This document shows, piece after piece, positions 2,703 to 58,620 of a stretch of 64,000 nt of DNA. The notes below the pieces were generated by a model. It did not search any database and had not been told where the DNA came from. It saw nothing but the letters and a program-made list of their open reading frames with translations. Source of the stretch: Candidatus Parcubacteria bacterium (GTDB lineage Bacteria; Patescibacteriota; Minisyncoccia; Minisyncoccales; JAGLUP01). Within the stretch, counting starts at the first letter, position 1; the number at the start of each line of letters is the position of its first letter. The translations under genes were made by a program, and so were the position numbers. The stretch covers positions 143,906 through 207,905 of the forward strand of contig JAGLUP010000002.1 of NCBI GenBank assembly GCA_023134715.1. Reading direction: 5' to 3'.

Positions 2703-2867
2703 AAAGATGGAAAGAAAAATTGAAAGTTATTTGAAAATTAAATTTACTCTGTTAAAGATCCATTTAACAGAGTAAAGCAAAATCTTGAGTTCAGTTTTTT
2801 AGAGTTGTTCCGACTCTAAATTATGCAACGTAAGTTGCAACTTTGAAAATTTTTTAAATTTTCATTT

Positions 2868-4380
<1,513 letters not shown>

Positions 4381-21465: not shown

Positions 21466-22839
21466 ATGAAAAAATCTCATAAATCAATAATAGACCATAT
21501 TCCCCTTTTTTTAAAACATTTGAAAAAGGAAGATTATTCTGGTCATACTGAAAAAAACTATAAACGTTATCTAAATAGATTTATATTGTGGCTTAAAAAA
21601 ATAAAGAAAGAAACTCTTAAGCCACACGAATTAACTGCTGACGATATTAAAAATTATAAATTTTATCTTTCTGTATCTAAATCTAAAAATGAAAAAACTC
21701 GCCTTTTAAAGCTTATTACTCAAAACTACTATTTAATCGCCCTGAGAGCCATTTTGAGCTATTTTACAGCCAAAGACATAGTTTCGCTCCCAGCAGATAA
21801 AATAAAACTGCCGAAAAACGCTCAGGATGGGAAAACCATAAAATTTCTCAATTTAAACCAAGTTGAGCAACTTTTAATGATTCCTGACACTAAAATAAAA
21901 ATCGGATTAAGAGACCGAGTTATTTTAGAACTTTTGATTTTTAATGGATTTAAACTGTCTAAACTCGTAAATTTAAACAGAAATGCAATTAAATCGCTTT
22001 CAAAAAGAAACATTGATTATGTTAAACAATATTTAAAATCTCGCAAAGATAAAAAAAATGCTCTACTTGTTCGTTATAGTGGTCGCAAAGATGCAGAAAG
22101 CCGTCTCACACCTCGCTCCATAGAAAGAATTATTAATAAATACGGAGAGAAAATCGGGCTTAACTTTCGGCTTACGCCTGAAATTTTACGTAAAAGTTAT
22201 GCTCTTGGCCTATTAGAAGAACAAAAAAAAATAAAAATTTATAAGCCTCAAGCTCACGAAATTTCTTTTATTAAAAACTACGACATATCAATTCCTTTTC
22301 AAAAGAAAATAAAAAATGGCATATCCCCTGCTTGGAATGTTGTTGAGTCTATTATTGAGGAAGAAATAAACTGGCTAAAAAACAATATTTCTGTTTTACC
22401 TGAAAGATATAAAAAAAACTTTTTATTATTGAGCGATGCCCTAATTTTGCGAAAAATAGCAATTTTAATTGTAAACGGCAGGATAAGGGCTACTGAATTT
22501 AATTCTGAAAAAAATAATCTATGGAATAACTGTAGAAAAAAATCAAAACTTAATAAAATAAATCGGCATGGAAAAGAATGGCACAAAAAAATGATGAATG
22601 TGGTTTATGAATACTTTAAGCTTAAAAATTATAAAGTAGCCATAGAACCAACTCTAAATTACGGACGAGCAGATTTAGGAATTTACTCAAATTCAAAAAG
22701 AACTTCTCTAAAAGAAGTTCTTTATATTGAAATAGGCACAGTATCCTTATATAAACTCTGGTATAATCTTTCATCAATGAAAAATGTCACTTTTCTAATT
22801 ATTCCCTCTAAAAAATACGCAATAGAATTTAAAATTTAA
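21466..22839 (+). CDS. degenerate tyrosine-recombinase-like protein fused to a C-terminal PD-(D/E)xK-like domain
   Basis: SAM-like N domain and box I (LRDRVILELL..G.KLSKLVNL) are present, but HxLRH is replaced by EILRKS and the GH...Y segment is missing; C-terminus GRADLG...YIEIGT resembles a restriction-endonuclease-fold core. Confidence 0.5.
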   Translation: MKKSHKSIIDHIPLFLKHLKKEDYSGHTEKNYKRYLNRFILWLKKIKKETLKPHELTADDIKNYKFYLSVSKSKNEKTRLLKLITQNYYLIALRAILSYFTAKDIVSLPADKIKLPKNAQDGKTIKFLNLNQVEQLLMIPDTKIKIGLRDRVILELLIFNGFKLSKLVNLNRNAIKSLSKRNIDYVKQYLKSRKDKKNALLVRYSGRKDAESRLTPRSIERIINKYGEKIGLNFRLTPEILRKSYALGLLEEQKKIKIYKPQAHEISFIKNYDISIPFQKKIKNGISPAWNVVESIIEEEINWLKNNISVLPERYKKNFLLLSDALILRKIAILIVNGRIRATEFNSEKNNLWNNCRKKSKLNKINRHGKEWHKKMMNVVYEYFKLKNYKVAIEPTLNYGRADLGIYSNSKRTSLKEVLYIEIGTVSLYKLWYNLSSMKNVTFLIIPSKKYAIEFKI

Positions 22840-22843
22840 TTAT

Positions 22844-23788
22844 ATGAAAAAAATACAACTTCCTGATTTAGATGATTTTCTTTTAGATCTTCAAGTTAAT
22901 AATCTTTCCGAGAAAACAGTTTATAGTTATGAACGAGATTTAGAAGTTTTTCAAAATTTTCTAAAAGAAATAAATATTGAATTTGATAATATTGATAAAA
23001 AAACAATTCTTAATTATAAGGCTTATTTAGTTTCTCGAGACAGAAAAACAGCTAAATCTCAAAAAAGTAAAAAACGACTTAGTAGTTATTCTATAAATAA
23101 AATGTTATCTGCTATTCGTTCCTATTTAAAATTTTTAATAGATATGGATTATAAGTCTCCCATATCTCCCAGCGAGATTAAATTAGTAAAAACCGAAAAA
23201 AAGCACCCTCGCGTTTCAGAGCTTGAAGAAATAATAAAATTAATTCAATTTCCCACGCAATTTGAAAAAAATAAGATTATTGCTTTGCGCAATCGAGCAG
23301 TGCTTGAAACTTTATTTTCTACTGGAATGAGAATTTCTGAAGTTATAAACTTAAAAAAAGAACAAATTGATAAAACAGGAAGAATCTTTATTATGGGCAA
23401 AGGCAAAAAAGAAAGATTCGTTTATTTGACGCCGAGAGCACAAAAACATATTAAAAAATACTTAGAAGTTAGAGGTATAACAAGTTCTTCTTACCTATTT
23501 ATTCCTTATAGAGGAAAAAATGTAAACTTAAAGGATAAAAAACTTTCTCCTAATTATCTAGAAGAAAAAGTTAAAAAATATCGTGAATTACTTGGATTAA
23601 ATGTCCCTGTTTCTGTCCATGGTATTCGCCATGCATTTGCAACATATTTAGCAGAAAGCGGAGCTAGCCCAGCTGCTATTCAAATATTATTAGGCCATGA
23701 ATCTTTAGATACAACTACAAAATATGTTCATGCTTCCGACCGTTATGCGCAAAAAATTCATCAAAAATTCCACCCTCTCAAGGAATAA
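22844..23788 (+). CDS. tyrosine recombinase XerC/XerD family, catalytically complete
   Basis: RNRAVLETLFSTGMRISEV, HGIRHAFATYL, LLGHESLDTTTKYVH (R, HxxR, H, Y). Confidence 0.85.
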   Translation: MKKIQLPDLDDFLLDLQVNNLSEKTVYSYERDLEVFQNFLKEINIEFDNIDKKTILNYKAYLVSRDRKTAKSQKSKKRLSSYSINKMLSAIRSYLKFLIDMDYKSPISPSEIKLVKTEKKHPRVSELEEIIKLIQFPTQFEKNKIIALRNRAVLETLFSTGMRISEVINLKKEQIDKTGRIFIMGKGKKERFVYLTPRAQKHIKKYLEVRGITSSSYLFIPYRGKNVNLKDKKLSPNYLEEKVKKYRELLGLNVPVSVHGIRHAFATYLAESGASPAAIQILLGHESLDTTTKYVHASDRYAQKIHQKFHPLKE

Positions 23789-49333: not shown

Positions 49334-49708
49334 TTAACTTAAATACTTTTTTATTCTATCGCGGTCCTCATTTTCTTTTTCACCCTTAAAATATATCTGA
49401 ATAAATTCAACTTTACAAGTTTGAGAATAAAAAGCGTAAATAACTCGTATTCCGCTTTTTGAGCCTCGTCCTTTTAGCGCCTTGCAGGCAAATTTTTTGA
49501 TTTTGCAAATTTGTACTATTTCCGTACAAAAACCTTTGATTGGAAAAATGCTTTGATTGTCAATGCGTTTAAGGTGATAAAGCTCAATAGCGTTGCGTTT
49601 TGCAGTTTCTAAATCTTCCTCAAGCGTTCTATATTTTTTGAGAAGTCGCTTGAGGTCTTTTTGAAAAAGGTTAATTTCACTGTATTTAATCTTCGTCGGT
49701 TTTGTCAT
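49334..49708 (-). CDS. RelE/ParE-superfamily-like toxin
   Basis: 124 aa; ...GSKSGIRVIYAFY....V.FIQIYFKGEKENED resembles RelE/HigB-type toxins; overlaps the upstream antitoxin by 23 nt. Confidence 0.5.
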   Translation of the reverse strand: MTKPTKIKYSEINLFQKDLKRLLKKYRTLEEDLETAKRNAIELYHLKRIDNQSIFPIKGFCTEIVQICKIKKFACKALKGRGSKSGIRVIYAFYSQTCKVEFIQIYFKGEKENEDRDRIKKYLS

Positions 49709-50477
49709 ATTTTCTTACTGATGTTTCGGGCGTGCGGTAAAACACCGACTCAAAATCAAGCGGTTTTCCGTCTTCCGCGCTAATCCACGGGACATCTTTA
49801 TGTGATAAATCTGTTAATTGACTGGCTGTTAAATCAGAAAGTCGTTGTAATTCCCAATCAATATGCTTCTGTTCTTGGCCATTTAAAATGCTTAATTCCG
49901 GCTCAATTGCCGGATTGACCAAATACTTGGTTTGAGGATATTGGTAAAACTTGCTTTTTACGATTTCCACATCGCCATCTTTCACCATATCTTTGATAAG
50001 ATTTTCAAACAAAAGCGGCGTTGGCCCATGATGATTTTTCATATACACTAAACCCATCAACTGGTCCTCATATTTTTCGTAATAGTCAAAATCTATAAAA
50101 TAAAGCAATTTATACAAAACCGTCATGCCAACATTCGGCTTGCCGCCGACTTTTTTTAAAATGTAAAGCAAAATTTGTCGAAACTTATCTGCTTTTTCTT
50201 GCGGAACGCTTATTCTAATCTCATTTTCTTGCTTTTGAGTTTGTTTTTTCTTTTTTTCCACTTTTACGATTGTCTTTATTCCTTCCTTGCTTTGCAAAAA
50301 ATTTTGAAAAGAAATGTTAAAAATTTCCGCCAGCTTTTTTGCTTCGGTAATAGTTAAATCCCGCCCGCCTTGTTCTATTTGAACATAAGTCGGACGGGAA
50401 ATGCTTAATTCAGACGCCAAAAACTCCTGCGTCAAATTGCGCTTTTTCCGTTGTTGTTGAATGAATTTTGCAAGCAT
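49686..50477 (-). CDS. XRE-HTH + Panacea (DUF4065/SocA-like) domain antitoxin
   Basis: LTQEFLASELSISRPTYVQIEQG HTH; C-terminal KLLYFIDFDYYEKY...G..Y.KN.HGP typical of DUF4065; promoter TTGACA-17-TATACT at about 50486-50514 (minus). Confidence 0.6.
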   Translation of the reverse strand: MLAKFIQQQRKKRNLTQEFLASELSISRPTYVQIEQGGRDLTITEAKKLAEIFNISFQNFLQSKEGIKTIVKVEKKKKQTQKQENEIRISVPQEKADKFRQILLYILKKVGGKPNVGMTVLYKLLYFIDFDYYEKYEDQLMGLVYMKNHHGPTPLLFENLIKDMVKDGDVEIVKSKFYQYPQTKYLVNPAIEPELSILNGQEQKHIDWELQRLSDLTASQLTDLSHKDVPWISAEDGKPLDFESVFYRTPETSVRKYDKTDED

Positions 50478-55341: not shown

Positions 55342-55472
55342 ATCCGATAGTAAAACAAAAAACCCACAGAGCTAAGCTCCGCAGGTTTTTTGTTTATTTC
55401 TATTCACCTTTTTCCAACCCACAAACTTTTTTATGAGCTCGAAAAAATAAGAAAGAGAAAAAAATTTCTTTT

Positions 55473-55766
55473 CTACCTTGCCCTTAGGAATTCAGGGGTA
55501 AGGTAATCTTTAACATAGTCGGTTAAATCATTGGCGATATCAATTAAAATATGATAGTCCTTCTCTTCTTGATATTTCTCTACGGCCTCAAGTATAACCT
55601 GCTTAACCATTCCATGGCTATGTCCAATTTCTTCAAGTATCCGAGCAGCCATTGCAGTGGCTTCGGTATCCTTCTCTTCAAAAAGTGAATCCACTAGACA
55701 TTTCTGTAGTTCACTGATGTTTTTTTCCTTATTTGCTTTACTTATCCGTACAAAAATATTTGTCAT
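55473..55766 (-). CDS. hypothetical protein (cargo of cassette-array module 1)
   Basis: 97-aa ORF with GGAGGT 7 nt upstream; no motif recognised. Confidence 0.4.
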   Translation of the reverse strand: MTNIFVRISKANKEKNISELQKCLVDSLFEEKDTEATAMAARILEEIGHSHGMVKQVILEAVEKYQEEKDYHILIDIANDLTDYVKDYLTPEFLRAR

Positions 55767-55792
55767 TGTTTTTACCTCCGCAGGAATAATGT

Positions 55793-55888
55793 CATTCTCC
55801 TGCCGATTGAAATTCCAAAATTCGCGTAAATTCGTGTCAATATTTGTTTAAATTTGCGATACTTAGAACCTCAATCAGCAGGAGAATG
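55793..55888. promoter_or_regulatory. conserved long hairpin, copy 1 (18-bp stem, 60-nt loop)
   Basis: cattctcctgccgattga ... tcaatcagcaggagaatg; the same stem at 56960-57011 has a different, shorter loop. Confidence 0.65.
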
Positions 55889-56115
55889 TTTCTTGCCTCG
55901 CCGAAGTATAGATGTATGGCGGGCTTGCCTCGCCGAAGTTTAAACGAAGGCGGGTTTCTCTTTCTTTTTTTGCCCTCCATAGTTTTAACGAAGGAGGGTT
56001 TTTTTTATTTAAAGAGCTGTCTTTTATTTCTAACAAGGAGAGAGCTCTTTTCAAATTTACACAGACCCGACGTGTGTATTTTGTTTAAAAAGAATTCTCT
56101 CGTTGCTAATTTTGC

Positions 56116-56143
56116 TTGACATTGTGTTTAAAAATTATAGAAT
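56116..56143 (+). promoter_or_regulatory. promoter of hicBA (shared TA-cassette promoter, copy 1)
   Basis: TTGACA-16 nt-TAGAAT within an about 130-nt block repeated at 57068-57196. Confidence 0.6.
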
Positions 56144-56178
56144 AAAATTAGATTAAAAAATAATTTAGTTTTAAATTT

Positions 56179-56427
56179 ATGCGTATTTATACTTTTCGAA
56201 CTATCATTGAACCAGACGAAAATAATACTTTTCATGGTTATGTTCCATCTCTTCCTGGCTGTCATACTTGGGGAGAAACAATTGAAGAAACAAAAATAAA
56301 TTTAAAAGATGCGATAAAATGTCATATTCAAGGACTTTTGAAAGATAAAGAGTTTATTCCTCAAGATAAAGAAAGTTTAGAATTTATTCAAACTTTTACT
56401 GAAAAAGAACTTGTGAAAGCAATGTAA
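56179..56427 (+). CDS. hicB: HicB-family antitoxin (UPF0150)
   Basis: YTFRTIIEPDENNTFHGYVPSLPGCHTWGETIEETKINLKDAI. Confidence 0.8.
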   Translation: MRIYTFRTIIEPDENNTFHGYVPSLPGCHTWGETIEETKINLKDAIKCHIQGLLKDKEFIPQDKESLEFIQTFTEKELVKAM

Positions 56428-56431
56428 TTAT

Positions 56432-56662
56432 ATGCCGAAATTGCCTGTTATAAAATCTAAAGAATTGGCAAAATTTTTAAATAAGATTGGATTTTTTGAA
56501 TATCATCAAACAGGAAGTCATATTCAATTTAAGCATTCAGACGGCAGAAGAACAACTATTTCTTTTCATCCTGGGAAAGATATTCCTCGGGGAACGCTTA
56601 AGGCGATTCTTAGAGATTTAAAAATCTCAAATGAAGAATTTATAAAATTATTAAAAAAATAA
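56432..56662 (+). CDS. hicA: HicA-family mRNA interferase toxin
   Basis: SKELAKFLNKIGF.......GSH.QFKH.DGRRTTISFHPGKDIP.GTLKAILRDL. Confidence 0.8.
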   Translation: MPKLPVIKSKELAKFLNKIGFFEYHQTGSHIQFKHSDGRRTTISFHPGKDIPRGTLKAILRDLKISNEEFIKLLKK

Positions 56663-56840
56663 TAGGCCAATCCATAGGTCTGTTTTTTTTATTCTGTTTT
56701 TTATTTTTTACCCTGAACCCTATGTGGTTTAGGGCTTCTTCCAACCCACAATTTTACAAAAATGGTCTAAGCCCGTCTTGGACCATTTTTGAAGTTTATG
56801 GGCTCGAAAAAATAAAGAAAGAGAAAATTCATGGTCTAAT

Positions 56841-56933
56841 TTATCGCGCATAATTTTTTAGACCATTTCTTATATTTTCCGTGAATTCTTTAATCTTCTT
56901 TGTTATTTCTTCCATCAAAATTATTATATCCAT
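56841..56933 (-). CDS. possible 30-aa peptide (cargo of module 2)
   Basis: MDIIILMEEITKKIKEFTENIRNGLKNYAR preceded by GAGGTGTAAAA; in the same position as 55473..55766 relative to the conserved hairpin. Confidence 0.25.
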   Translation of the reverse strand: MDIIILMEEITKKIKEFTENIRNGLKNYAR

Positions 56934-56959
56934 TTTTACACCTCTGCGGAAATAATATT

Positions 56960-57011
56960 ATTCTCCTGCTGGTTGGGGTCCAAGATTTAGAACCTCAATC
57001 AGCAGGAGAAT
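56960..57011. promoter_or_regulatory. conserved long hairpin, copy 2
   Basis: attctcctgctggttg-gggtccaagatttagaacc-tcaatcagcaggagaat. Confidence 0.65.
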
Positions 57012-57144
57012 AGCTACAGGCTTGTCGGTATCTGATACCGACAGACATTTTCTCTTTCTTTTTTTTATTTAAAGAGCTGTTTATTGTTTCTAACAAGGAG
57101 AGAACTCTTTTCAAATTTTTTTAAAAAGAATTCTCTCATTACTA

Positions 57145-57172
57145 TTGACATTATGTTTAAAAATTATAGAAT
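57145..57172 (+). promoter_or_regulatory. promoter of the relE-like TA pair (shared TA-cassette promoter, copy 2)
   Basis: TTGACA-16 nt-TAGAAT, same block as 56116-56143. Confidence 0.6.
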
Positions 57173-57196
57173 AAAATAAAGATTAAATTTATATTT

Positions 57197-57403
57197 ATGG
57201 CTCAAGCACTATTAGATAATAAATTACAAATGTCACGACTTCAAGAAGAAGTAAAAATTCTTCGTTCTTTTGTGATTGGTATTGCCGGAAAAGATAAAGA
57301 GGGAGAATATAAGCCAGAATTTGTCAAAAAAATATTAAAAGCGTCTCAAGAAAAACCAGAACATAGATTTAAAGATAAAAAATCTTTTCTTTCAATGATT
57401 TAA
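57197..57403 (+). CDS. putative antitoxin
   Basis: 68 aa directly upstream (6-nt gap) of a RelE-like toxin; no motif recognised. Confidence 0.5.
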   Translation: MAQALLDNKLQMSRLQEEVKILRSFVIGIAGKDKEGEYKPEFVKKILKASQEKPEHRFKDKKSFLSMI

Positions 57404-57409
57404 AAATTC

Positions 57410-57673
57410 ATGATAATTCTTGTTTATAGTAATTATTTTTTAAAATCTGCGAGAAAGCTTCCTAAAATACAACAAAATAAACTTGCAGAACTTCTTGAAA
57501 AATTTCAGAAAAATCCATTTTCTTCTGAATTACATACTAAATCTCTTACTGGAAAATTAGCTGGATTTTACTCTTTTAGAATTACTCGCGATTGGCGAGT
57601 AATTTTTCAATTTCTATCATCTGAGAAAATACAGCTTATAGATATTGGACACAGAAAAGATATTTACAAATAA
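57410..57673 (+). CDS. RelE/ParE-family toxin
   Basis: F.KSARKL....Q.K....L..F..NPF...L..K.L.GKL.G.YSFRI..DWRVIF......I.LIDIGHRKDIY. Confidence 0.75.
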   Translation: MIILVYSNYFLKSARKLPKIQQNKLAELLEKFQKNPFSSELHTKSLTGKLAGFYSFRITRDWRVIFQFLSSEKIQLIDIGHRKDIYK

Positions 57674-57743
57674 TATTAACCTTTTTCCAACCCACAAAAT
57701 CTGTTTTCTGGACTCGAAAAAATAAAGAAAGAAAAAAAATATT

Positions 57744-57977
57744 TTAGAACCAATCACTGTAATGAGAACCAGTAAAATAAAATGTTCCAACCGCTAAAGC
57801 CAACCTTATTATACCTCTCATCATATAGTATGTGCCCTCTGCTGGTATTTCTTCCATACAAAAACCAGATACTATATCCATACATCCGATTGCAAATAAA
57901 TATAAACCTACTATGCTAAATAGTACCAAAAATAGAACCTTAGCTATAGTCATTAAATATGTTTTTACACGTTCCAT
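57744..57977 (-). CDS. small membrane protein (cargo of module 3)
   Basis: 77 aa, two TM helices. Confidence 0.4.
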   Translation of the reverse strand: MERVKTYLMTIAKVLFLVLFSIVGLYLFAIGCMDIVSGFCMEEIPAEGTYYMMRGIIRLALAVGTFYFTGSHYSDWF

Positions 57978-58340
57978 TTTAGTTTCACCTTATATATATC
58001 TGCCGTCACTAGAAAACCTGACATTATCAGATTTCTTCAAGGCATTAAACTGACAACTAATTATTTAATTATCAATTCACTGCCCTGAAGATTTTCTCTT
58101 TCTTTTTTGCCCGCCTAATTGTCCGACCCGCCTGCATCGTTATGCGAAGCATTGCGGGCAGGAGGACTTTTGACGGATTATTTTATTCAAAGAGCTGTTA
58201 TTAAAGAAAAACAGACAACTATGGAGAGAGGTCTGTTTTTCGTGAATAATTAAAATCAGTTTCTCTCTCCTAACATTTTTAATTATACCATAAAAGCAAA
58301 ATTTGTCAAGTTCAAGTTAAAAAAAGACAGCATAGATTTT

Positions 58341-58499
58341 CTATGCTGGGGTTTGAGAACATTTCTTTTCTAATTCTTTAAGCGCCCTTTCGCCTTTTCT
58401 TACTTCTTTAAAACCTTCTTTTACTTCCTTTGTGTTGGGTACAAATATCTCTACCTCCGACACATCTATCTCCACATCATCTATCTCCACATCATCCAC
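58341..58499 (-). CDS. possible 52-aa acidic protein with internal 15-nt tandem repeat (below cutoff)
   Basis: GTG start 4 nt after GAGGTGAT; VDDVEIDDVEIDVSEVEIFVPNTKEVKEGFKEVRKGERALKELEKKCSQTPA; the KEGF..VR.G...L.EL tail is antitoxin-like. Confidence 0.3.
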   Translation of the reverse strand: MDDVEIDDVEIDVSEVEIFVPNTKEVKEGFKEVRKGERALKELEKKCSQTPA

Positions 58500-58620
58500 T
58501 TCAATCACCTCTTTTTATATTTTATTTTTAATATCTTCATATTACACTCTAATCCAAAAATGTCAACTTTTAATTCTTTTCCACAGGGTTTTTAAAAAAA
58601 ATGTGTTAAAATAGTTTAAT

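Follow-up and report, generated by a model that had tools for sequence, protein, structure and literature searches.

A three-unit array of putatively exchangeable small-gene cassettes, joined by a conserved hairpin-containing junction, in a Candidatus Parcubacteria bacterium

Integrons, and the clusters of attC sites lacking an integron integrase (CALINs), are arrays of mostly single-ORF, mostly orphan cassettes, which lie in one orientation behind one promoter and are gained and lost at an imperfectly palindromic junction with a variable apical part. Folding of this junction is strand-specific, the recombined strand being the bottom strand, and in chromosomal integrons toxin-antitoxin (TA) cassettes carry their own promoters (PMC8876359). 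In T4-type phages, short conserved PeSL motifs, consisting of an early promoter and a terminator stem-loop, flank orphan ORFs in variable regions, and recombination between the motifs inserts, deletes and replaces these ORFs without a dedicated recombinase (PMC2839356, PMC4122927). The dif modules (pdif, XerC/D) of Acinetobacter plasmids are small modules carrying accessory genes or TA systems, bounded by short recombination sites on which a recombinase encoded elsewhere, the housekeeping Xer, acts (PMC6449649, PMC13141974). The pdif sites are 28-bp duplex sites with a fixed 6-bp spacer and alternate in orientation. Conserved imperfect hairpins placed just after stop codons within polycistronic units are also found as intercistronic RNase III processing hairpins (T7 early region) and as REP/BIME elements, REPs being dispersed in hundreds of copies and not known to be tied to cassette turnover.

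We analysed a 64,000-nt stretch of contig JAGLUP010000002.1 (assembly GCA_023134715.1, positions 143,906 to 207,905), here called the window, in which a first-pass annotation had proposed three consecutive modules with inverted-repeat boundaries (L and R), variable small ORFs and TA pairs. This observation was confirmed, every listed element being present at, or within a few bases of, the positions given. The three units share L (55408-55464, 56735-56828 and 57681-57739), R plus a leader box, long 5'-UTR hairpins and, in units 1 and 2, a TA promoter block. The array is built like an integron but has no integrase or attC site, and it appears to be undescribed; neither Rfam nor the literature search returned a match. 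Its features are given below in order along the plus strand; contigs carrying related arrays are designated by L and a three-digit number.

55353-55395, no strand: GC-rich hairpin flanked by an A run and a T run, the terminator at the promoter-distal end of the array, just upstream of the grpE promoter (55341-55313); together with L hairpin 1 it is 80% identical over 116 nt to the array end in L202.
55408-55447, minus: L hairpin 1, the junction hairpin (CTTTTTCCAACCCACAA-loop-CTCGAAAAAA); nhmmer E = 8e-12, minus-strand fold -20.7 kcal/mol, z = -3.5.
55444-55464, minus: pyrimidine tract P'1 (purine tract L2 on the plus strand), ending 8 nt from the ORF stop codon.
55473-55766, minus: cassette ORF 1, 97 aa, no Pfam family; a 40%-identical homologue in L228 is also next to an L site, and its only database relative is named 'Candidatus Parcubacteria bacterium'.
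55793-55888, minus: 5'-UTR hairpin 1 (ATTCTCCTGC... arms), ending about 20 nt before the Shine-Dalgarno (SD) sequence GGAGGT; fold of 55760-55900 -48.9 kcal/mol, z = -7.2.
55892-55952, no strand: two tandem GC-rich hairpin inserts (CTTGCCTCGCCGAAGT twice), the only two copies in the window.
55953-55971, minus: R1, the purine tract P1 of cassette 1.
55994-56020, minus: leader box 1 (TTTATTTAAAGAGCTGT on the plus strand), matching the family consensus tattttatcaaagaactaactc and preceded by a GC hairpin insert at 55972-55998.
56021-56148, plus: block shared with unit 2, holding the TA promoter TTGACA-16-TAGAAT (56116-56143).
56179-56662, plus: hicB (56179-56427; Pfam HicB_lk_antitox, 4.5e-12) and hicA (56432-56662; HicA_toxin, 3.6e-21), with a terminator overlapping the 3' end at 56661-56692.
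56711-56734, no strand: ccctgaac...gtttaggg hairpin abutting L hairpin 2; the same hairpin type abuts L in many other contigs (L070, L121, L138, L162, L174, L194 and others).
56735-56812, minus: L hairpin 2, with a hairpin insert in its apical loop (inverted-repeat arms at 56757-56791); fold -34.6 kcal/mol, z = -4.7.
56809-56828, minus: pyrimidine tract P'2, 20 nt, 95% complementary to R2.
56841-56933, minus: cassette ORF 2, 30 aa, possibly a remnant, with SD GAGGTG a few nt before the ATG; the unit is 259 bp, close to the smallest spacings in the family (239-240 bp).
56959-57012, minus: 5'-UTR hairpin 2, its 25-nt arm identical to that of unit 1; fold -36.5 kcal/mol, z = -5.4.
57022-57080, minus: GC hairpin (57022-57044), R2 (57047-57066) and leader box 2 (57064-57080).
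57081-57177, plus: shared block 2, with the TA promoter at 57145-57172.
57197-57673, plus: DUF2683 antitoxin-like gene (57197-57403) and a RelE/ParE/YoeB-type toxin (57410-57673), with no terminator before L hairpin 3.
57681-57722, minus: L hairpin 3; nhmmer E = 1.9e-9, fold weak (-12.2 kcal/mol, z = -1.0).
57719-57739, minus: pyrimidine tract P'3.
57744-57977, minus: cassette ORF 3, 77 aa, with long hydrophobic stretches and only weak Pfam hits to DUF308 and DUF5671, both below cutoff.
58034-58091, minus: 5'-UTR hairpin 3, differing in sequence from those of units 1 and 2; fold -40.4 kcal/mol, z = -7.4.
58091-58198, minus: R3 (58091-58108), a GC hairpin insert (58109-58165) and leader box 3 (58172-58198).
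58282-58309, minus: array promoter TTGACA-16-TGnTATAAT (12 of 12 consensus positions), reading toward cassette 3; homologous promoter units sit at the same end of arrays in L117, L187, L195, L146 and L240, and the region is 74% identical to L202 over 129 nt.

Motif searches of the window were used to assess the repeats. The first part of L, L1 (CTTYTTCCAACCCACAA), occurred three times, at 55408, 56735 and 57681, and nowhere else in the 64 kb, while the second part, L2 (CTCGAAAAAATAAAGAAAGAGAAAA), matched at 56803 and 57713 at <=3 mismatches, against 0 expected by chance, with a one-base-shorter copy starting at 55438 recovered in a repeat family. R (ATTTTCTCTTTCTTTTTT) was found at 55953, 57047 and 58091 and its complement at the three L2 positions, giving 6 matches against 0.46 expected, and the L2/R inverted repeats were 17-20 nt long and 94-95% complementary. 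The hairpin arm CTCAATCAGCAGGAGAAT occurred four times, as two inverted pairs with loops of about 60 and 19 nt, and the block shared by units 1 and 2 comprised 60 nt at 93% identity plus 33 nt at 97%, including the TA promoter.

Five further points emerged that the first-pass annotation had not recorded. L is itself a hairpin, CTTTTTCCAa / CTCGAAAAAa, around a loop that carries a 36-nt insert in unit 2. R is always followed by a third conserved box, TTTATTYAAAGAGCTGT, with which the inverted repeat is really about 30 bp. Unit 3 has its own long 5'-UTR hairpin, and the perfect minus-strand promoter at 58309-58282 reads into the array. The purine and pyrimidine tracts, finally, are generic to the family and thus on their own weak evidence, and it is the family-wide conservation that makes them real.

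The same junction was present in at least 114 of 120 metagenome contigs, of which 109 gave strong profile matches and 5 more had long loop inserts, and in three contigs of metagenome-assembled genomes (MAGs) from the candidate phyla radiation (CPR). A strict scan of viral contigs found nothing. As an independent retrieval, homologues of one cassette protein were found by protein search alone, and all 4 contexts had the hairpin right after the stop codon. The junction is always next to the stop codon of a small, usually orphan ORF, the stop codon being mostly 10-30 nt away. Arrays hold 1-4 cassettes, all in one orientation, between a consensus promoter and a terminator, and 76 of 118 loci have a single site. 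A total of 114 unique ORFs fell into 95 clusters with a median of 113 aa, and only about 7 of 80 hit Pfam, among them GNAT, LMWPc, cupin and a hydrolase. TA cargo also recurred, with hicBA in L201 and vapBC beside the promoter unit in L240.

L is an imperfect ~39-nt hairpin that folds on the strand encoding the small ORFs. On 29 sites not selected by the scan pattern, 17 pairs were 93.9% paired, against 44-66% in slid controls, six pairs showed compensatory changes, and covariation was 0.255 against 0.183 in shuffles (0 of 500). Mean fold energy was -16.9 kcal/mol on the ORF strand against -10.0 on the other, with 125 of 129 sites favouring the ORF strand. Minimum-free-energy folds showed a helix between P' of one cassette and P of the next around the hairpin in most of 40 junctions, and in simple cassettes (L117, L128/L133) P is the SD itself. 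The 5'-UTR hairpins had a median z of -4.3 over 116 cassettes.

Contigs with near-identical flanks carry different cassettes, or extra ones, exactly at these junctions. One context reads A-X, A-Y-X or A-Z-Z2-X' in different contigs, each letter standing for a cassette; three different single cassettes sit between identical flanks that encode 100%-identical GreA; and L232 has one extra cassette relative to L183. The same cassette was also found in unrelated contexts. No recombinase recurred next to arrays.

The interpretation offered by the first-pass annotation was partly supported. A cassette system with conserved boundaries and variable cargo was supported, as was the absence of an adjacent recombinase, and of the two alternatives given, it is the small-ORF units bounded by L2 and R that behave as cassettes. 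Membership of the integron family was not supported, there being no IntI and no GTTRRRY/RYYYAAC attC core, and neither were the MITE-like and invertible readings. The TA operons are better seen as riders, or cargo, placed at a permissive point between the leader box and the next L hairpin, and do not define the scaffold; in L201 a hicBA operon with its own promoter is the sole cargo between two L hairpins. The Xer-type genes at 21.5-23.8 kb, which had been named as the nearest recombinases, are ordinary-looking Xer homologues 32 kb away, and no link to the array was shown.

Compared with integrons and CALINs, the array shares the cassette arrangement, the structured junction, the strand-specific folding, the gain and loss at the junction, TA cassettes with their own promoters, and a cassette size of about 0.25-1.6 kb. 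It differs in that IntI and the attC core are lacking, the junction is conserved in sequence as well as in structure and carries long purine and pyrimidine tracts and a separate leader box, the strand that folds is the sense strand, arrays are short, and the hosts are CPR bacteria. As with PeSLs, conserved motifs with a stem-loop flank orphan ORFs that are inserted, deleted and replaced, but the internal junction here has neither a promoter nor a terminator, and the context is chromosomal bacterial rather than phage. As with the dif modules, small units carry accessory genes or TA systems and are bounded by short sites, on which a recombinase encoded elsewhere might act. The hairpin arms end in C-A-Y-A-A / T-T-R-Y-G, faintly like the CATAA/TTATG of dif; here, however, the 'spacer' between the CACAA and CTNGAAA motifs varies from about 10 to over 80 nt, all sites point the same way, and compensatory changes argue for a folded single strand. 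With respect to REP/BIME elements, the window holds only 3 copies in 64 kb, all inside the array.

The strongest rival, although we consider it unlikely on present evidence, is that of an integron analogue, in which the junction hairpin with its complementary tracts would fold in single-stranded DNA and serve as the site for a recombinase encoded elsewhere in the genome, a Xer-related tyrosine recombinase or another kind, that would excise and insert circular single-ORF cassettes, the arrays then corresponding to CALINs. The architecture parallels integrons point by point, with single small ORFs in one orientation downstream of one strong promoter, an imperfect palindrome with conserved mismatches whose apical loop accepts inserts that lengthen the site from the usual ~36 nt to over 100 nt, like the variable terminal structure of attC, and orphan-rich cargo with GNATs. 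The Y insertion maps to within CTCGAAAAAAAAGGGGG at one foot of the hairpin, and the inverted repeats flanking each ORF are what a site split by integration would leave. Against this, the window's two Xer-like proteins scored far below the IntI model cutoff (75.6 and 21.5 bits against 265), and no tyrosine recombinase was found in the flanks of about 124 loci. Single-cassette loci have only one hairpin, yet their cassette is still replaced. Apparent crossover positions are not all the same, falling in the A/G run, in the T run of R and to the left of the hairpin, and L196 compared with L229 requires conversion between junctions.

A less likely reading is that of a purely regulatory repeated RNA element, for example an RNase III-type intercistronic processing site or a 3' stabiliser, which merely marks accessory genes and to which the cassette differences are incidental. 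The sense-strand fold with G.U pairs, the SD-sequestering structures and the many single-site loci are in its favour. However, every indel and replacement that could be resolved, apart from one unrelated 219-bp indel (L236 vs L191), has its boundaries inside the junction elements, and this, with the occurrence of the same cassette and its junction in unrelated contexts, is not expected if the element played no part in exchange.

That the small-ORF units are MITE-like transposons bounded by L2/R terminal inverted repeats, or segments inverted by a recombinase acting on them, is very unlikely. Inverted repeats of 17-20 nt (up to about 30 nt with the leader box) do flank each unit, but the Y insertion includes one L hairpin in addition to that unit, so that the unit is not simply bounded by terminal inverted repeats, and a cassette's own pair of tracts is only marginally more complementary than pairs from other cassettes (17.6 against 15.7, p = 0.03). 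All sites within a contig point the same way, every cassette ORF lies on the strand opposite to L1->L2, no cassette was seen in the opposite orientation relative to hairpin, promoter and terminator in about 120 contigs, and no transposase or invertase is nearby. A local tandem duplication of one TA promoter region, suggested by the block of about 130 nt at 90-97% identity and the identical 25-nt hairpin arm of units 1 and 2, is refuted as a complete explanation, as the ORFs and TA genes differ between units, unit 3 lacks the TA block and the same scaffold occurs in more than 100 unrelated contigs without any TA genes, although duplication may still account for the shared block.

Our preferred, though tentative, explanation is that the region is an array of three exchangeable expression cassettes. 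Read on the minus strand, each unit consists of a leader box (AGCTCTTTAAATAAA), a purine tract P, which in the simplest family members is the SD region, a long 5'-UTR hairpin, an SD, a small ORF, a pyrimidine tract P' complementary to P, and the conserved hairpin (the reverse complement of L). In this view the junction P'-hairpin-leader-P would be transcribed and fold on the sense strand, an outer P':P helix enclosing the hairpin and tying up the purine/SD tract of the next cassette, and it probably acts as an intercistronic RNA device for processing, stability or translational control. Any such RNA role is, however, inferred from strand asymmetry and position alone, and a single-stranded DNA fold of the same strand would give the same asymmetry; as the junction holds neither a promoter nor a terminator, its regulatory function is unproven. 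The near-invariant sequence and conserved mismatches of the hairpin, G.G at the helix junction and a C.A mismatch in about a third of sites that alternates with C-G and U-A pairs, look like a protein recognition site and would suit a recombinase equally well. In the window, moreover, cassettes 1 and 2 are separated from the array promoter by convergent TA operons, which leaves their expression uncertain. While the anatomy, the conservation, the strand-specific hairpin with covariation, the cassette polymorphism and the cargo diversity were demonstrated by the analysis, the RNA function, the route of recombination and a stabilising role of the TA operons are inferences.

We take the most likely route of exchange to be general, repeat-mediated recombination without a dedicated adjacent enzyme, as shown for PeSL motifs, although a trans-acting recombinase, as in integrons, is not ruled out. 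General recombination can shuffle cassettes but does not explain how unrelated ORFs came to be packaged between identical ends, and the resolvable crossover intervals are short (about 9-17 nt), which is small for RecA-type exchange. The hicBA and relE-type operons, each with its own promoter on the opposite strand, probably stabilise the array. On this reading the cassettes of this Parcubacterium belong to a family widespread in CPR/Patescibacteria, in which the same ~90-nt junction, because it is repeated between unrelated ORFs and across genomes, is also where cassettes are gained, lost and replaced.

We first asked whether the repeated scaffold described in the first-pass annotation was present, and every element that it listed was found in the sequence, so that its observation held in full. 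L1 (CTTYTTCCAACCCACAA), the first conserved part of the left boundary L, occurred three times and only in this region of the 64-kb window. L2, the second part of L, was matched at two positions against zero expected by chance, with a third, one-base-shorter copy appearing in a family of direct repeats, while the right boundary R and its complement gave six matches against 0.46 expected. The L2/R inverted repeats were 17-20 nt long and 94-95% complementary, and the ATTCTCCTGC hairpin arms were found four times, as two pairs. The block shared between units and its two TTGACA-16-TAGAAT promoters were confirmed, as were the three minus-strand ORFs and the two toxin-antitoxin (TA) pairs. Several further features were new. 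R was always followed by TTTATTYAAAGAGCTGT, which we call the leader box, L was itself an inverted repeat, unit 3 had a long 5'-UTR hairpin of its own, and a perfect consensus promoter on the minus strand pointed into the array. The features of the array and its immediate surroundings were as follows.

55438: start of the one-base-shorter copy of L2.
56803 and 57713: matches to L2.
55892-55998 and 58109-58165: GC-rich hairpin inserts in a 31% GC region, in which CTTGCCTCGCCGAAGT appears twice in tandem, along with gccctcc...ggaggg and gcccgcc...gcgggcagg; they interrupt the R/leader region of units 1 and 3 and are not repeated elsewhere in the window.
58309-58282, minus strand: perfect consensus promoter pointing into the array.
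58341-58508, minus strand: a 55-aa, highly acidic ORF with a repeated VEIDD motif and no Pfam match, with its own promoter (58566-58539) and terminator (58348-58328), just upstream of the array promoter.

We then searched for the same scaffold elsewhere. A scan of a 596-Gb genome collection with L1 alone, a 17-mer too short for a collection of this size, returned at least 116 hits, nearly all of them due to chance, but it did recover three CPR MAG contigs (L018, L070 and L117; such numbers denote contigs found in these searches) with unmistakable homologous arrays. A stricter two-part pattern recovered at least 120 contigs from JGI metagenomes, of which 109 gave strong full-length profile matches, 5 more were real sites with long loop inserts and about 6 were chance hits with higher GC. 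The real contigs had 30-42% GC and came from dozens of datasets, whereas a strict junction pattern gave no hits among viral contigs. In the plus-strand orientation of the window, the family consensus read pyrimidine tract (cttcccc), tattttatcaaagaactaactc, CTTTTTCCAGCTCACAA, atgattatggg, CTCGAAAAAA and purine tract (ggggaag). Part of this sequence was fixed by the scan pattern; however, the loop-proximal TTATGGGCT was not in the pattern and was still nearly invariant. Two samples free of this bias agreed with the consensus, namely 31 secondary sites in the same contigs that do not fit the scan pattern, and four independent contexts retrieved purely by protein homology to one cassette protein, all of which had the hairpin right after the stop codon. 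The only named homologue of the 97-aa protein of the window came from a Parcubacterium, in keeping with the host, while no record was found of a second strain carrying the window's own array.

All cassette ORFs lay on the strand opposite to L1->L2, with the stop codon mostly 10-30 nt from the junction. Read on the coding strand, a unit consisted of the leader box, a purine tract (P), usually a long hairpin whose 3' arm overlaps the SD or start codon, the ORF, a pyrimidine tract (P') and the junction hairpin. Over 116 cassettes the 5'-UTR hairpin had a median z of -4.3, and two sequence classes recurred, with conserved apical parts and covarying basal stems. In the simplest cassettes (L117, L128/L133), P was the Shine-Dalgarno region itself, directly before the ATG. 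A leader peptide in 5'-UTR hairpin 1 was considered, but the short ORF concerned (MTLFLRR) was not conserved in unit 2 and the idea was dropped. Arrays held 1-4 junctions per contig, which are lower bounds because many contigs are short, and junction spacing was 239-1653 bp, apart from three larger gaps, with a median of about 560 bp. A conserved promoter unit (ttgacaaatcttatgtatttgctataatagaggtgtaagaataagatagctctttgat) was found at the ORF-upstream end, and often a conserved terminator unit (aagaactgtctgtaatcaggcagtttttgctt) at the other. The closest relative of the window array was L202, a single-cassette version which shares the terminator with L hairpin, the hairpin arm, R with leader box, and the promoter unit, but whose flanking genes are unrelated.

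The junction hairpin was analysed on the coding strand in 29 sites, 27 of them not selected by the scan pattern. A 17-pair hairpin was 93.9% paired, against 44-66% when partners were slid, six pairs showed compensatory changes, and the covariation score was 0.255 against 0.183 in shuffles (0 of 500). Examples of compensatory change included CAAACTCATAA/TTGTGAGTTTG in L194, CTTTTTCTAA/TTAGAAAAAG in L128, TTATCTCA/TGAGATAA in L232, and GC-rich replacements of the inner helix in L131, L143 and L161. The hairpin was much more stable on the ORF strand (mean -16.9 against -10.0 kcal/mol), with 125 of 129 sites favouring that strand, the reason being that many pairs are G.U or G.T on that strand. Conserved imperfections remained, with a G.G opposition at the helix junction and a C.A mismatch in about a third of sites that alternates with C-G and U-A pairs. 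The apical loop accepted self-complementary inserts that lengthen the site from the usual ~36 nt to over 100 nt, and L hairpin 2 of the window carries one. Some of these inserts, such as cttgtcccgttagaaacgaagttttctaatggg and ttttacagaggacagtcctctgtaaa, recurred in the loop in different contigs (L018, L135, L138, L199, L214 and L225; also L168 and L201) and look like miniature hairpin elements with their own spread. Folds of the whole junction usually added an outer helix between P' of one cassette and P of the next, leaving the leader box in an internal loop. When we tested whether the purine and pyrimidine tracts pair specifically within a cassette or across a junction, own-cassette pairs were only marginally better (p = 0.03) and junction pairs were no better than random pairs, so that the tracts are generic. 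The window's own elements folded as expected, although L hairpin 3 was weak.

Comparison of contigs showed that cassettes are exchanged at the junction. One left context (A) was followed by cassette X in L195, L205 and L206, by an extra 408-bp cassette Y and then X in L196 and L229, and by two other cassettes and then X' in L214, with the Y insertion mapping to within CTCGAAAAAAAAGGGGG. L146, L181 and L160/L213 shared an identical left flank and an identical promoter and GreA flank (100% amino-acid identity), yet carried three unrelated single cassettes, and the boundaries of one replacement (alpha/beta) lay inside the two inverted-repeat arms. L232 had one extra cassette relative to L183, bounded by a variant hairpin with compensatory changes. 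Conversely, near-identical cassettes occurred in unrelated contexts, namely L128/L133 (90.8% over 541 nt), L216/L230 (93% over 805 nt) and L121/L211. The crossover intervals that could be mapped in such comparisons were short and not unique.

The cargo comprised 114 unique complete ORFs in 95 clusters, with a median length of 113 aa. Only about 7 of the 80 scanned hit Pfam, these being two GNAT acetyltransferases, an LMW phosphatase, an alpha/beta hydrolase, a cupin, DUF1385 and a zinc ribbon. Opposite-strand genes inside arrays were rare. The two TA operons of the window are one case, and both have adjacent small antitoxin and toxin genes with matching Pfam domains and their own promoters, as expected of type II systems (HicB, 4.5e-12, and HicA, 3.6e-21; DUF2683, 1.3e-6, with YoeB/ParE/HigB at about 1e-6). 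A hicBA operon with its own TTGACA promoter was the sole cargo between two hairpins in L201, and in L240 a vapBC pair lay divergent from the promoter unit. A 69-aa opposite-strand gene at 4272-4571 of L240, also with its own TTGACA promoter, was wedged against a second junction hairpin and terminator unit, and is another such rider next to an array. In the window, the TA operons occupy the point between leader box and next hairpin, which elsewhere holds only short hairpins or promoter units. Apart from the array, the minus strand of the window at 49334-50477 encodes a 263-aa HTH plus SocA/Panacea-domain protein (annotation from the gene table of L001) overlapped at its end by a 124-aa ORF, which may be a Panacea-type toxin-antitoxin pair.

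No recombinase recurred beside the arrays. ORF clustering and phmmer searches of the flanks of about 124 loci found no tyrosine recombinase and no invertase, and only 5 loci with large serine recombinases (436-546 aa; L230, L198, L135/L225 and L200), which lay 1-8 kb from the arrays at variable distance and orientation and are probably unrelated integrated elements. The same clustering revealed in L174 (8399-10397) a radical-SAM activase-like gene interrupted by what looks like an intein or homing-endonuclease insert (665 aa). Within the window, two tandem tyrosine-recombinase genes lie at 21466-23788, 32 kb from the array. The first (21466-22839, 457 aa) has only a partial catalytic domain plus a weak PD-(D/E)XK hit at its C terminus, and the second (314 aa) is a normal XerC/D type; the two Xer-like proteins scored 75.6 and 21.5 bits against the IntI model (TIGR02249) cutoff of 265, and there was no IntI in the 64-kb window. 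Rfam searches at gathering and E-value thresholds returned nothing relevant, since only 16S rRNA and tRNA matched in the window, and one tRNA in five array loci, while sub-threshold hits were terminator noise. The 16S rRNA gene of the window (2866-4379) was accompanied by no 23S or 5S rRNA anywhere in the 64 kb, so the rRNA genes are unlinked. Searches of the available literature for the sequence strings, and for CPR/Patescibacteria with integron, attC or cassette, found no paper describing such arrays or this junction and returned only resistome/integron surveys.

The first-pass annotation had compared the region with integron-like, invertible or MITE-like cassette systems, and this interpretation was only partly supported. 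The architecture is integron-like, in that the site folds as an imperfect hairpin on one strand with a variable apical part, and mostly single-ORF cassettes lie in one orientation behind a common predicted promoter. However, membership of the integrons fails on the two defining features, the IntI integrase and the attC core (R'' RYYYAAC / R' GTTRRRY; PMC8876359), since the consensus CTTTTTCCAGCTCACAA...TTATGGGCTCGAAAAAA has no conserved GTT, and AAC appears only in the CCAACCC variant. The hairpin itself, and the coincidence of cassette indels and replacements with the junctions, can be read directly from the sequences, whereas expression of the cassettes, any role of the junction as RNA, the route of recombination and any role of the TA operons are inferred.

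Two mechanisms remain. In the first, which we favour slightly but tentatively, the junction would be a transcribed intercistronic RNA device, and its repetition would provide portable homology for general recombination, for which there is a precedent in the PeSL motifs of T4-type phages (PMC2839356). In its favour, the strand that folds is the sense strand, the flanking tracts and 5' hairpins involve the SD, no enzyme is adjacent, and apparent crossover positions vary. The polymorphism pattern is compatible with such shuffling between repeated motifs. In contrast to PeSLs, however, which consist of a sigma-70 promoter plus a terminator stem-loop, the internal junctions contained no promoter match and no T tract after the hairpin, and promoter and terminator units occurred only at array ends. 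In the second, which is less likely but possible, the hairpin would be a single-strand recombination site for a trans-acting recombinase. In its favour are the near-invariant sequence with conserved mismatches, the tolerance of apical inserts, the short crossover intervals and the unexplained packaging of unrelated ORFs between identical ends. Reading L as a duplex Xer/dif-like site, with two 11-bp arms and a fixed 6-bp spacer in a 28-bp site of alternating orientation, was rejected because the spacer is variable, the changes are compensatory and all sites have the same orientation. A purely regulatory reading is disfavoured by the exchange data, and a tandem duplication by the occurrence of the same scaffold in more than 100 unrelated contigs. 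A MITE-like unit is disfavoured because the Y insertion adds one L hairpin as well as the ORF unit, so that the mobilised unit is not the one bounded by terminal inverted repeats, and an invertible segment because only one orientation was seen in all contigs.

The region thus belongs to an apparently undescribed, widespread cassette system of CPR bacteria, of which this window holds an unusual TA-bearing example. TA cassettes with their own promoters are known to be expressed in, and to stabilise, chromosomal integron arrays (PMC8876359), and a similar role here may be inferred; the arrays also give a second setting, besides chromosomal integrons, in which TA operons ride inside cassette arrays. 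CPR/Patescibacteria have tiny, streamlined genomes, and how they acquire and turn over accessory genes is poorly understood. It is possible, though on present evidence less likely than general recombination, that they possess their own integron-like gene-capture system, in which the conserved hairpin junction, folded from a single strand, would be the attC analogue and would be processed, independently of IntI and attC, by a so-far-unidentified recombinase encoded elsewhere in the genome. Such a system would supply these tiny genomes with a shared pool of orphan accessory genes and TA modules. The junction, which can be searched for by sequence and marks exchangeable single-gene cassettes in more than 100 contigs from dozens of metagenomes, is a candidate new structured nucleic-acid element with covariation and no Rfam match. 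It provides a handle for cataloguing the mobile accessory gene pool of these organisms and a concrete test case for whether integron-like gene capture evolved more than once.
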